Source of the DNA: a phage
Direction: 5' to 3' (one strand)
Assembly (NCBI GenBank): GCA_026209155.1
Contig: GCA_026209155.1_3056.1
DNA length: 64,000 nt
In this document: one piece after another, positions 19,048 through 23,805 of the stretch
How the letters are laid out: every line of letters begins with the position of its first letter
Numbering within the stretch: position 1 is the first letter of the stretch
Notes under the pieces: model-generated
Seen by the model: the letters and a program-made list of their open reading frames with translations, nothing else
The model's database searches: none
Told to the model about the DNA's origin: nothing
Position numbers and translations under genes: made by a program

Positions 19048-22000
19048 ATGGCTACTTTAAAACAAATACAATTTAAAAGAAGCAAAACTGCAGGAGCACG
19101 TCCTGCCGCTTCAGTATTAGCCGAAGGTGAATTGGCTATAAACTTAAAAGACCGCGTACTTTTTACTAAAGACGACCAAGGAAATATCATTGATCTTGGT
19201 TTTGCTAAGGGCGGTAGTATTGACGGGAATGTTATTCATAAAGGCAATTATAACCAAACTGGCGATTATACTTTAAACGGTACATTCACCCAGACTGGTA
19301 ATTTTAATTTAACCGGTATTGCTCGAGTAACTCGTGATATTATTGCTGCTGGGCAGATTATGACTGAAGGCGGAGAACTTATTACAAAAAGTTCAGGAAC
19401 GGCACACGTTCGTTTTCATGATTCCGCCGACCGTGAACGCGGTATTATTTTTTCTCCTGCTAATGACGGTTTAACTACACAAGTAATTAACATCAGAGTT
19501 CAAGATTACAAAGCCGGTTCAGAAAGCACTTTCGCTTTTAATGGAAATGGTTTGTTTTCTTCACCAGAAGTTTTTGGGTGGAAATCTGTATCAACTCCGG
19601 TAATTTATACCAATAAAGTTATCACCAATAAAAAAGTTAAAGATGATTATGACATCTATTCGATGGCAGACAATGTTCCATTGTCTGAAAGCACTACTGC
19701 TATTAATCATCTTCGTGTTATGCGTAATGCAGTTGGTTCTGGTATTTTCCATGAAGTTAAAGATAATGATGGAATAACATGGTATAGTGGAGATGGATTA
19801 GACGCTTATCTTTGGTCATTTACTTGGAGCGGCGGAATTAAATCAAGTCACTCAATTTCCATCGGTTTAACACCCGGACCTAAGGATTACTCAATATTAG
19901 GACCGTCTAGTATCGCTTTAGGAGATAATGATACTGGATTTAAATGGCATCAAGACGGATATTATTTCAGTGTTAACAATGGCACAAAAACGTTTTTATT
20001 TAGTCCAAGCGAAACAACTAGCCTAAGAAAATTTATAGCTGGATATTCTACTAACGGAACCGATTTAACTACTCCTCCAACTGAAAATTATGCTCTTGCT
20101 ACTGTAGTGACATACCATGATAATAACGCGTTTGGGGATGGTCAGACTCTTTTAGGATATTATCAAGGCGGTAACTATCATCATTATTTCCGCGGCAAGG
20201 GCACTACAAACATTAATACTCATGGCGGTTTGTTAGTTACTCCAGGCAATATTGACGTTATTGGTGGTTCTGTTAATATCGATGGTAGAAATAATAATTC
20301 AACTTTAATGTTTAAAGGCTATACCATGGGTCAAAGCTCCGTTGATAACATGTATATAGCTGTTTGGGGAAATACTTTTACTAATCCAAGTGAAGGCACC
20401 CGTAAAAATGTCATGGAAATTTCTGATGATATTGGATGGATGCATTATATTCAACGTAATAAAGATAATACGGTTGAAGCCGTGTTAAATGGTCAACAAA
20501 CAATTAATGAAAATATTATTGCGAAAAAGGATATTTGGGTTGACCGAGCAGTTCATACCATTGGCGAAATCACTACAAATGCTGTTAATGGTCTTCGTAT
20601 TTGGAATAATGATTATGGAGCCATTTTTAGACGTTCAGAAGGCAGTCTTCATATTATTCCAACTGCTTACGGTGAAGGTAAAAATGGTGATATCGGTCCA
20701 CTTCGCCCGTTTAGTATAGCTTTAGATACTGGTAAAGTTACTATTCCAGATTTACAATCAAGTTACAATACGTTCGCGGCAAACGGCTATATTAAATTTA
20801 CTGGTCATGGCGCTGGCGCTGGTGGTTATGATATTCAATATGTTCAAGCGGCTCCTATTTTCCAGGAAATCGATGATGATGCTGTAAACAAATATTATCC
20901 GATTGTTAAGCAAAAATACCTTCAAGGTAAAGCAGTTTGGTCTTTAGGTACTGAAATTAATTCAGGTACATTCGTGATACACCATATCAAAGAAGATGGA
21001 ACACAGGGCCATACATCAAGATTTAATGCTGATGGTACAGTTAACTTCCCGGATAACGTTCTGGTCGGCGGTGATATTAACATGAAAGGCTTGCTGACTT
21101 TTGATGCCGGACGTTTAGGATCACGAGATTATTTTAAATTTAACCATTGGGGTGATAGTAATAATGCTCGTGATAACATCATCCAGTTAGAAGATAGTCA
21201 AGGCGCCCATTTTTTCACTGAACGTACTTTAGCGACAGGTGCAATTAAAACTCGTTTCTTTGGCGAAACATTTACTGATGGTACATTATACCTAAATCAG
21301 ATGAATAATAGCTCTGAACAATTCCATATCAATAATTGGGGAAATTCAGAAGTTGGTCGCGCGGCAGTGATGGAAGTCGGTGATTCCAAAGGTTATCACT
21401 TCTATACAGAACGCAGGACAGATAACAGTTTGACGTTTGATGTTGCTGGCAATTTTACTGTGCATGGATCTGGCGGGATCACTATCAAAAACTCTGCTGG
21501 TGCACGACATATCTGGTTTAGAGATGATAGTGATGCGGAAAAGGCTGTTATCTGGGCTACAGATGATGGTATTTTACATATACGAAATAATTATGGGGGT
21601 TCATTTAGTCATCACTTCCGGGGTGCAATGATTCTAGCGGGAGAGCGTGTTCCATATAATAGTGAATACGCTCTTATCCGTGGTAATATTTCCGGTGGTG
21701 CATGGGTAGACTGGCGAGATCGTCCGGCTGGATTGTTGGTAGACTGTCAGGACTCACGAAATCAAGCATATAACATTTGGAAAGCTACTCATTGGGGCGA
21801 ACAGCACCTTGCGGCGATGGGTGTTCATGCTGGCGGTGGTAATCCTCATGTTGCATTGCATGTGGGTGGGAGTGATTATGCATTTGCAGTTAACGGTGAT
21901 TTTACTGCTGGTGCTGCTGTATATTGTAACGACGTTTATATTCGTTCTGACCGTCGTCTGAAAATTAATGTTGAAGACTACGAAGAGAATGCGGTGGATA

Positions 22001-22299
22001 AGGTAAATAAACTCAAAGTTAAAACCTATGATAAAGTTAAATCTCTTTCTGACCGCGAAGTTATCGGCCATGAGATTGGTATTATCGCACAGGATTTGCA
22101 AGAAGTATTACCGGAAGCTGTTAGCACCTCTAGTGTCGGATCTCAGGATAACCCAGAAGAAATTTTAACAATTTCAAACTCTGCTGTGAACGCGCTTTTA
22201 ATTAAGGCCATTCAGGAAATGAGCGAAGAAATTAAAGAATTGAAAACGCCTCTCTTTACTAAAATTGCTCGCAAAATTAGTAAATATTTTAAATTCTAA
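19048..22299 (+). CDS. 37: Long tail fibre distal subunit gp37 with C-terminal intramolecular-chaperone-like domain
   Basis: 1083 aa; N-terminus conserved with fibre proteins; C-terminal about 117 aa after the SDRRLK motif. Confidence 0.9.
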   Translation: MATLKQIQFKRSKTAGARPAASVLAEGELAINLKDRVLFTKDDQGNIIDLGFAKGGSIDGNVIHKGNYNQTGDYTLNGTFTQTGNFNLTGIARVTRDIIAAGQIMTEGGELITKSSGTAHVRFHDSADRERGIIFSPANDGLTTQVINIRVQDYKAGSESTFAFNGNGLFSSPEVFGWKSVSTPVIYTNKVITNKKVKDDYDIYSMADNVPLSESTTAINHLRVMRNAVGSGIFHEVKDNDGITWYSGDGLDAYLWSFTWSGGIKSSHSISIGLTPGPKDYSILGPSSIALGDNDTGFKWHQDGYYFSVNNGTKTFLFSPSETTSLRKFIAGYSTNGTDLTTPPTENYALATVVTYHDNNAFGDGQTLLGYYQGGNYHHYFRGKGTTNINTHGGLLVTPGNIDVIGGSVNIDGRNNNSTLMFKGYTMGQSSVDNMYIAVWGNTFTNPSEGTRKNVMEISDDIGWMHYIQRNKDNTVEAVLNGQQTINENIIAKKDIWVDRAVHTIGEITTNAVNGLRIWNNDYGAIFRRSEGSLHIIPTAYGEGKNGDIGPLRPFSIALDTGKVTIPDLQSSYNTFAANGYIKFTGHGAGAGGYDIQYVQAAPIFQEIDDDAVNKYYPIVKQKYLQGKAVWSLGTEINSGTFVIHHIKEDGTQGHTSRFNADGTVNFPDNVLVGGDINMKGLLTFDAGRLGSRDYFKFNHWGDSNNARDNIIQLEDSQGAHFFTERTLATGAIKTRFFGETFTDGTLYLNQMNNSSEQFHINNWGNSEVGRAAVMEVGDSKGYHFYTERRTDNSLTFDVAGNFTVHGSGGITIKNSAGARHIWFRDDSDAEKAVIWATDDGILHIRNNYGGSFSHHFRGAMILAGERVPYNSEYALIRGNISGGAWVDWRDRPAGLLVDCQDSRNQAYNIWKATHWGEQHLAAMGVHAGGGNPHVALHVGGSDYAFAVNGDFTAGAAVYCNDVYIRSDRRLKINVEDYEENAVDKVNKLKVKTYDKVKSLSDREVIGHEIGIIAQDLQEVLPEAVSTSSVGSQDNPEEILTISNSAVNALLIKAIQEMSEEIKELKTPLFTKIARKISKYFKF

Positions 22300-22335
22300 C
22301 AACAAGGGGGAAATGCCCCCTTTGGAGTATAAATT

Positions 22336-23118
22336 ATGGCAGTAGTTGGAGTTCCTGGCTGGATTGGAAGTTCAGCCGTAAATGAAACGGGTCAGCGCTG
22401 GATGAGTCAAGCAGCTGGTCAATTAAGATTGGGTGTTCCTTGCTGGATGAGTCAATTTGCAGGTCGCTCAAGAGAAATAATTCACACGCTTGGAGCAGAC
22501 CATAACTTCAATGGCCAATGGTTCCGAGATAGATGTTTTGAGGCAGGTAGTACACCTATAGTGTTTAATATCACTGGAGATTTAGTATCATATTCTAAAG
22601 ATGTTCCTTTATTCTTCATGTACGGAGATACACCGAATGAATATGTTCAACTGAATATACATGGTGTAACGATTTTTGGCCGTGGCGGGAATGGCGGTAG
22701 CAATAGTCCTGGCTCAGCTGGGGGTCATTGTATTCAAAATGATATTGGTGGGAGACTAAGAATTAATAATGGTGGAGCTATTGCAGGCGGCGGTGGCGGC
22801 GGTGGAGGCGGATATTATTCTCCTTTTTCACAAATGAGATTGACCTTTGGCGGCGGCGGTGGGCGTCCGTTTGGTGCACCTGGCGGATCTATTGATATGC
22901 AATCAGGCGCGACTGGCGGTACTATTTCTGCACCTGGCTCAGGATCCGTGAATGGTATTTATAATGGTGGAAACGGTGGTGAAGTAGGTTCCGCGGGAGG
23001 TAGATGCAATATTCGCGGTCAAGGATCTGAATATAATGGCGGCGATGCTGGTTATGCTGTTATAGGGTCTGCTCCAACGTGGATAAATGTTGGAGCAATA
23101 TATGGTCCAAGAGTATAA
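22336..23118 (+). CDS. 38: Receptor-recognising adhesin gp38, long Gly-rich-motif type
   Basis: 260 aa with several poly-Gly motifs ([29 protein letters not shown]) between variable segments; immediately after gene 37. Confidence 0.85.
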
Positions 23119-23148: not shown

Positions 23149-23805
23149 ATGGCAGCACCTAGAATATCATTTTCGCCCTCTGATATTCTGTTGGGTGTTC
23201 TAGATCGCTTGTTCAAAGATAACGCTACCGGGAAAGTTCTTGCTTCCCGGGTAGCTGTCGTAATTCTTTTATTTATGATGGCGATTGTTTGGTATAGGGG
23301 AGATAGTTTCTTTGAGTACTATAAGCAATCAAAGTATGAAACATACAGTGAAATTATTGAAAAGGAAAGAAATGCACGCTTTGAATCTGTCGCCCTGGAA
23401 CAACTCCAGATAGTTCACATATCATCTGAGGCAGACTTTAGTGCGGTGTATTCTTTCCGCCCTAAAAACTTAAACTATTTTGTCGATATTATAGCATATG
23501 AAGGAAAATTACCTTCAACAATAAGTGAAAAATCACTTGGAGGATATCCTGTTGATAAAACTATGGATGAATATGCAGTTCATTTAAATGGACGTCATTA
23601 TTATTCCAACTCAAAATTTGCTTTTTTACCAACTAAAAAGCCTACTCCCGAAATAAACTACATGTACAGTTGTCCATATTTTAATTTGGATAATATCTAT
23701 GCTGGAACGATAACCATGTACTGGTATAGAAATGATCATATAAGTAATGACCGCCTTGAATCAATATGTTCTCAGGCGGCCAGAATATTAGGAAGGGCTA
23801 AATAA
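23149..23805 (+). CDS. t: Holin T
   Basis: 218 aa as in T4; single N-terminal TM segment and large periplasmic domain. Confidence 0.9.
   Translation: MAAPRISFSPSDILLGVLDRLFKDNATGKVLASRVAVVILLFMMAIVWYRGDSFFEYYKQSKYETYSEIIEKERNARFESVALEQLQIVHISSEADFSAVYSFRPKNLNYFVDIIAYEGKLPSTISEKSLGGYPVDKTMDEYAVHLNGRHYYSNSKFAFLPTKKPTPEINYMYSCPYFNLDNIYAGTITMYWYRNDHISNDRLESICSQAARILGRAK

Follow-up and report, generated by a model that had tools for sequence, protein, structure and literature searches.

Conserved glycine runs and variable loops in a T6-type gene 38 adhesin with Tsx as the predicted receptor

Introduction

[quoted passage not shown] Gene 38 (g38) of the phage DNA analysed here, a stretch of 64,000 nucleotides that we call the window, raises this question. 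A first-pass annotation had called its product, gp38, an adhesin in which poly-Gly motifs alternate with variable segments. It had further proposed that GGN runs in the gene are hotspots of recombination or slippage that change receptor specificity, and that gp38 is the probable host-range determinant of this phage.

The framework for such a locus has already been published, between 1987 and 2018: gp38 as the host-range determinant, the modularity of glycine-rich motifs (GRMs) and hypervariable segments (HVSs), recombination at the GRMs, and a polyglycine-II (PGII) sandwich. Constant and hypervariable regions of gp38 go back to Montag and Riede 1987 (as cited in PMC12892980), and crossovers within small conserved GRMs that give chimeric adhesins to Tétart 1998 (cited in PMC3157838, where they were also put to experimental use). 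Modular determination of host range was described by Trojet 2011 and the PGII structure by Dunne 2018, and GRMs have been described as recombinational hotspots (PMC12032242).

In this study, we examine the family, fold, glycine runs and loops of gp38, together with length variants and mosaics among its relatives. The explanation that we favor, to which we assign a probability of about 85% as a whole, is that the window carries a T-even (Tequatrovirus) gene 38 of the T2/T6 type, encoding an adhesin with a PGII scaffold, loop-borne specificity, Tsx as the predicted receptor, and GGN runs that allow crossover and slippage.

Results

Gene 38 encodes an adhesin of the T2/T6 type

Gene 38 lies at 22336..23118 on the plus strand, where the open reading frame starts with ATG and translates into 260 residues followed by a stop. 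Of the 260 residues, 63 (24%) are glycine, and the G+C content of the C-terminal half of the gene is 52%, as compared to 35% across the 64-kb window. Two Pfam families match the product, both above the curated cut-off of 25 bits that holds for each: Gp38_N (PF21721) at aa 1-42 (E 1e-20, 73.7 bits) and GP38 (PF05268) at aa 47-260, the latter over profile positions 1-218 of 218 (E 6e-71, 239 bits). The sole matches in a sequence search of the PDB were 9v85, the receptor-binding domain of PP01 gp38 (E 2e-76), and 6f45, S16 gp38 (E 5.5e-51, aa 5-257). An AlphaFold2 model built from 49 homologues (pLDDT 88, pTM 0.80) again matched only 9v85 (E 1.6e-25) and 6f45 (E 2.3e-21), all other structures having E > 4, and it superimposed on 9v85_C with a TM score of 0.87 (normalised to the target) and an rmsd of 2.5 Å. 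The fold predicted for gp38 is thus a beta-helix plus a PGII sandwich.

The N-terminal attachment domain, delimited by Gp38_N (aa 1-42; 22336..22461, plus strand), is expected from homology with S16 to dock on the gp37 trimer. The S16 fibre has a single gp38 monomer seated on the gp37 trimer through three conserved Trp residues (PMC6851490). The translation of g38 has Trp9, Trp22 and Trp37 in this domain; across the aligned homologues W9 never varies and W22 conservation is 90% or more.

The surrounding gene order, from the open reading frame list and Pfam, is g34 (1289 aa), g35, g36, g37, g38 and holin t. Gene 37 (19048..22299, plus strand; 1083 aa) encodes the distal half-fibre that would carry gp38 at its tip, and the C-terminus of gp37 has a Peptidase_S74 intramolecular chaperone domain (aa 967-1025). 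Proteolytic processing of T2-type gp37 is on record, as cited in PMC3157838. The location of g38 directly 3' of g37 and 5' of holin t (23149-23805), together with the S74 domain of gp37, is the arrangement of the adhesin family, and the gene set around g38 is that of T2 and T6. By family homology, gp38 would be located at the fibre tip and act in adsorption. A second Pfam match in gp37, to Gp34_trimer (PF21446, E 8e-7), falls at aa 450-557.

Gene 38 is a typical representative of a family that has been studied in depth. In the phage collection that was searched, 417 records match it, nearly all of them T-even phages of Escherichia, Shigella or Yersinia. The top DNA match is vB_EcoM_Shinka at 96.7% identity, and the exact g38 allele is therefore absent from that collection. 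The gp38 proteins of T6, RB14, CM8 and Shinka resemble that of the window in length (260-261 aa), in gene order and in the possession of a Gly9 and a Gly5 run; the window protein is 93% identical to that of T6 and differs at 5 positions from that of Shinka and at 7-8 from those of RB14 and CM8. S16 (6F45) and PP01 (9V85) gp38 have the same three domains, namely attachment domain, beta-helix, and PGII sandwich with distal variable loops, but differ in loop sequence, in using OmpC as the receptor, and in overall identity, which is 45% and 64%, respectively. PP01 gp38 is S16-like in architecture and needs its loops B, D and E for OmpC recognition (PMC12892980). The window protein shows every testable feature that defines the T2/T6/S16-type gp38 adhesins as a family, as well as those that define the Tsx-type subgroup.

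Glycine runs and variable loops

An alignment of 119 homologues bore out the alternation of poly-Gly motifs, which are invariant or nearly so, with variable segments. The first glycine-rich motif, GRGGNGG (aa 115-121; 22678..22698, plus strand), was recognized by its conservation: G115, R116, G117, G118 and G120 are invariant in 49 homologues. The Gly9 run that follows (aa 151-159; 22786..22812, plus strand) consists of nine GGN codons, GGC GGC GGT GGC GGC GGT GGA GGC GGA, and makes up 2.9 copies of GGCGGCGGT. Its 9-nt periodicity is perfect over 20 nt, and it contains the only tract reported by Tandem Repeats Finder (22786..22811; period 9, unit GGCGGCGGT, 2.9 copies, score 45). When gp38 is aligned to 6f45, this run falls on S16 gp38 151-GGGGGGGG-158, which is the long central PGII helix, helix 3, of that protein (PMC6851490).

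The loop between the two runs (aa 160-171; 22813..22848, plus strand) is the least conserved block of the alignment and corresponds to HVS2 of Trojet 2011 by the position of its residues 167/168. Its counterpart in PP01, loop-B, is needed for adsorption (PMC12892980). The Gly5 run (aa 172-176; 22849..22863, plus strand) is encoded by GGC GGC GGC GGT GGG within the motif GGGGGRPFG, and an 11-nt direct repeat, GGCGGCGGTGG, is common to the Gly9 and Gly5 runs. Further on, the variable segment at aa 185-209 (22888..22962, plus strand; HVS3 by position in the alignment) includes residues 187, 199 and 207, where differences from PST and T6 occur. It is followed by an NGGNGG motif (GGT GGA AAC GGT GGT; 22966..22980, plus strand), part of a conserved glycine motif in which G212, G214 and G215 are nearly invariant.

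These coordinates agree in part with the first-pass annotation, which had placed GGC/GGT runs at about 22786..22815, 22850 and 22960. The runs of nine and five codons are both confirmed. The former was drawn one codon too long, because 22813-22815 reads TAT and the true end is at 22812. The third run was not found, the sequence near 22960 having two Gly doublets only (22966..22980).

The two runs are exceptional in the window. Five consecutive GGN codons, (GGN)x5, occur at two sites only when both strands of the 64 kb are scanned, with 0.00 expected from 100 shuffles. Moreover, 8 of the 14 Gly codons that form the runs are GGC, a codon that accounts for 16% of Gly codons in the genes g34-g37, t, motA and g52 (Fisher p = 8e-4); the codon usage of the phage would predict less repetitive runs. 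From the perfect 20-nt periodicity and the shared 11-mer, the window allele is expected to be as prone to indels as its relatives. As the glycine motifs are near-invariant and the intervening segments are the least conserved, the runs are first of all a structural scaffold, and specificity resides in the variable loops between them.

A phase-variable contingency locus was considered and rejected. There are only 2.9 copies of the unit, and the length changes seen in relatives are in frame, with no on/off switch; the repeat units being 3 or 9 nt long, length changes stay in frame.

Length variants in relatives

Run length is strongly conserved, 116 of the 119 homologues having Gly5 and almost every T6-type cluster representative having Gly9. 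That run lengths are fixed among close relatives, a reading taken from proteins clustered at 90%, nevertheless proved too strong and was given up, as Gly12, Gly4 and loop duplications came to light in complete genomes that had not been clustered. PYps14T and AV121 have Gly12: they carry (GGCGGCGGT)x3 + GGCGGCGGA, where PYps15T has x2, so that the gain is exactly one 9-nt unit. This Gly12 allele is known from two independent complete genomes, one from Germany and the other from Denmark. In PYps32T a +9-nt variant reads G10-V-G, and D5505 has lost one GGT to give Gly4 in the second run.

Larger changes involve the loop between the runs. The gp38 of PYps47T (locus L014, MT515755, 301-1137) differs from that of the E. 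coli phage HEMP5 solely by a perfect tandem duplication, 54 nt long, of the inter-run loop. This duplication can be placed in 69 registers, and the unit is therefore flanked by 14 nt of identical GGN sequence. An independent in-frame duplication of the same loop, of 51 nt, is found in the Yersinia phage vB_YepM_ZN18 (locus L002, MN716856, 1501-2334), where both the allele and the hybrid junction are different. The GGN microhomology at the loop-duplication junctions is 11-14 nt. PYps47T and ZN18 were both isolated on Yersinia pseudotuberculosis, on different continents and with different alleles; a literature search on phage ZN18 found nothing relevant. The inter-run loop is deleted in homologues P0019, P0022 and P0110, apparently as the reciprocal product of duplication, and runs are shortened in P0049 (Gly6) and P0112 (Gly4). 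These last come from single metagenome or SRA assemblies and could be artefacts.

A second type of gp38 in the PYps collection (PYps35T, PYps55T, PYps2T and PYps11T; loci L055-L058) also shows indels in glycine motifs between near-identical phages. In PYps55T, RGGQGG is extended to RGGQGGQGG by 9 nt (unit AGGTGGACA), and in PYps11T Gly5 has become Gly6. PYps35T gp38 has a 12-nt loop deletion (QYGN). The paper on the PYps phages records a "15-aa insertion" and other indels and gives no mechanism for them (PMC8762354).

Other candidates were set aside. The extra length of P0037 and P0046 is an N-terminal extension at the start codon rather than an internal insertion. The short gp38 of HP3.2 is not a Gly-run event and stems from the loss of 11 nt, with a frameshift, in the part that encodes the N-terminal attachment domain. 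In this phage (locus L051, OP978391), which comes from in vitro directed evolution, the deletion in g38 lies at about 450-460 relative to HP3.1 (L052), and the annotated CDS restarts internally; the two phages also differ by R/Q in the loop YYSPFS(R/Q)MRLTF. An IMG/VR scan with GCTATTGC-N{13,43}-TATTATTCTCC returned 30 stretches and was dropped as a source of the run-length distribution: only 3 of its contigs are known gp38 carriers by name, and the rest, being most of the matches, were therefore taken as chance matches. A protein-seeded IMG/VR scan yielded 13 loci, too few for synonymous-site analysis of the runs.

Mosaic adhesins

Exchange of segments between adhesins is apparent among the homologues. 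In P0031 the N-terminal and beta-helix backbone is 96-100% identical to gp38 and the loops are 0-23% identical, and in P0036 the beta-helix is 36% identical and the loops are 76-100% identical. P0006-P0015 share the backbone as far as the Gly9 run and are divergent after it. Together with the published GRM crossovers, and with the +9-nt, -3-nt, loop-duplication and loop-deletion variants whose junctions lie in the runs, these data support the view that the GGN runs are sites of recombination or slippage. A further homologue, P0033 (303 aa; "tail fiber domain-containing protein [Escherichia coli]" at NCBI), starts as gp38 and keeps this sequence through the N-terminal half as far as a shortened Gly run, after which a gp37-like C-terminus with Peptidase_S74 follows. 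It is either a recombinant joined at the Gly run or an assembly chimera.

Receptor prediction

Residues 115-233 of gp38 take in the three best-defined variable loops and are the same as in CM8 and Shinka. Over the same interval RB14 differs by A199S only, and T6 by S165P, D187N and A199S. Judged by sequence, the window protein has the T6-type set of hypervariable loops, matching T6, RB14 and CM8. CM8 was identified as a Tsx/HepI phage by RB-TnSeq, and replacement of its gp38 by that of EV240 from HVS2 onwards switched the receptor from Tsx to OmpA (bioRxiv 10.64898/2026.04.02.716166). T6-like HVS sets, including those of T6 and RB14, recognise Tsx (PMC3157838). The identity with CM8 at residues 115-233 and the association of T6-type HVS sets with Tsx predict that Tsx is almost certainly the primary receptor of the window gp38. 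The same findings uphold the proposal that gp38 is the probable host-range determinant of this phage.

The differences from CM8 lie at I113, F114, N234, D237 and I250. N234, D237 and I250 are common only to Shinka-like alleles, and I113 and F114 are private to the window allele among the sequences compared. Residues 113-114 (22672-22677), just before the first glycine motif, are Ile-Phe here, Met-Tyr in Shinka, RB14, CM8, PST and HEMP5, and Met-Trp in T6. Thr73 (22552-22554) is common only to PST among Shinka, RB14, CM8, PST, HEMP5 and T6.

Discussion

The favored explanation implies the following mechanism. A monomeric gp38 would cap the tip of the trimeric gp37 through its N-terminal domain (aa 1-42, with three Trp), and the rest of the protein would fold as a beta-helix with a projecting PGII sandwich. 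Within the sandwich, the glycine-rich motifs (the Gly9 and Gly5 runs among them) would pack tightly as PGII helices, and the variable segments would form distal loops that contact the receptor. As short islands of identity in otherwise divergent DNA, the conserved GGN runs would let phages swap loop cassettes by crossover. In a single gene, they would permit slippage or unequal crossover, with in-frame gain or loss of 9 nt or 3 nt, and the same events may also duplicate or delete the loop between the Gly9 and Gly5 runs.

The first-pass annotation had held that recombination or slippage at the repeats changes specificity. Indels at the runs do exist, as this requires, but the documented changes of specificity are loop point mutations or cassette exchange. 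To our knowledge, no change in Gly-run length has been demonstrated to alter receptor specificity.

The alternative that fares best takes the repetitiveness of the GGN codons to be a by-product of the need for poly-Gly in PGII; the indels of relatives would then be neutral or slightly deleterious noise, or artefacts, and host range would change by loop point mutation and ordinary homologous recombination. We consider this a serious contender, at somewhat less than even odds. When GRMs or HVSs were deleted from T6 by engineering, no viable phage was recovered in screens of 48 and 220 progeny (PMC3157838). Together with the conserved run lengths, this indicates that most Gly-run length changes are probably selected against. 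The experimentally selected changes in host range or adsorption are likewise loop point mutations rather than Gly-run indels, in PP01 gp38 (Y159H, Q161H, N163H and T207I) as in RB68 gp38 (Q206L), and several of the deletion variants are known from single assemblies. Mere noise fits less well with the Gly12 allele of two independent complete genomes, with two independent duplications of one loop that have different junctions and are both from Yersinia pseudotuberculosis phages, and with the excess of GGC, which exceeds what codon usage predicts. Nor does it fit well with the distribution over hosts: indels at or beside the glycine motifs are present in 5 of 7 Yersinia-hosted versus 2 of 56 other T6-type alleles inspected (Fisher p = 6e-5, with kinship ignored). 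The sample is small and comes in part from one zoo; when PYps15T is left out, the association has p = 8e-4, kinship again being ignored.

The host association raises a second idea, which we put forward tentatively and regard as rather doubtful: in-frame GGN indels, such as a 9-nt gain or a loop duplication, would be a recurrent adaptive route to hosts that offer no good match to Tsx, notably Yersinia pseudotuberculosis. This species is without a Tsx homologue, and T6-like adhesins become adapted to Yersinia through changes in HVS2 and HVS3 (Trojet et al., PMC3157838); a role for duplication of the inter-run loop in this adaptation is therefore plausible. An analogy is offered by T4 gp37, where in-frame tandem duplications of a small receptor-binding segment with short conserved motifs at its edges go together with a shift in host range (Tétart et al. 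1996, as cited in PMC3157838). It is an analogy only, as in T4 the gp37 tip, His-box motifs and another fold are involved, and the host-range effect was demonstrated for T4 and not for gp38 loop duplications. If the adaptive route is real, the GGC-rich codon choice would be maintained because it keeps the route open, and the window allele, with 2.9 copies of GGCGGCGGT and the shared 11-nt repeat, would be poised for such events.

A different alternative concerns the receptor. Through its private substitutions the window adhesin might use a different or an extended receptor, for example OmpA or an additional LPS component. A single substitution, Q206L, switches RB68 from OmpF to OmpW (bioRxiv 10.64898/2026.04.02.716166), and the window allele has I113 and F114 of its own as well as N234, D237 and I250, as in Shinka. 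The identity of residues 115-233 with those of the Tsx phage CM8 argues against such a change, and we think it improbable.

The two remaining alternatives have next to no chance of being correct and were rejected. A disordered, low-complexity linker would suit the 24% Gly and the lack of regular secondary structure that DSSP gives for the runs, but most of the Gly positions are invariant, the model has a pLDDT of 97-98 across the two runs (84 in the loop between them), and the homologous residues are ordered PGII helices in the 6f45 and 9v85 crystal structures. A T4-type gp38, the tail-fibre assembly chaperone of about 183 aa that the first-pass annotation had named beforehand as the contrary outcome, has in its favor only the position of the gene after g37; what was found is a 260-aa adhesin that matches PF05268, PF21721, 9v85 and 6f45 in full-length comparisons and in fold, next to a gp37 whose C-terminus, like that of T2-type fibres, is a cleavable S74 chaperone domain. 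The T4 protein shares the gene name and place with the window gp38, has an unrelated function and is not a virion component; length, 24% Gly and the adhesin matches, rather than a direct sequence comparison, set the two apart.

For the 64-kb window, the T2/T6-type adhesin reading has annotation value only: the phage is a T6-like Tequatrovirus with Tsx as its predicted receptor, which helps to forecast host range and routes of resistance (loss of tsx). A possible addition concerns the relatives, where two GGN-bounded loop duplications and the Gly-run length variants cluster in Yersinia-propagated phages. If the link between these indels and Yersinia is causal, it would provide a simple handle for engineering or predicting shifts in host range.

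Folding and conservation also point to a GC-rich hairpin at 22303..22324 (plus strand), between the g37 stop and the start and ribosome-binding site of g38. Its 8-bp stem has the arms CAAGGGGG / CCCCCUUG; the 45-nt stretch that was folded gave -14.7 kcal/mol with z = -2.5, and the core sequence is present as an exact copy in 13 related loci. Further downstream, TATAAATT at 22328-22335 resembles the T4 late-promoter consensus and abuts the g38 ATG.
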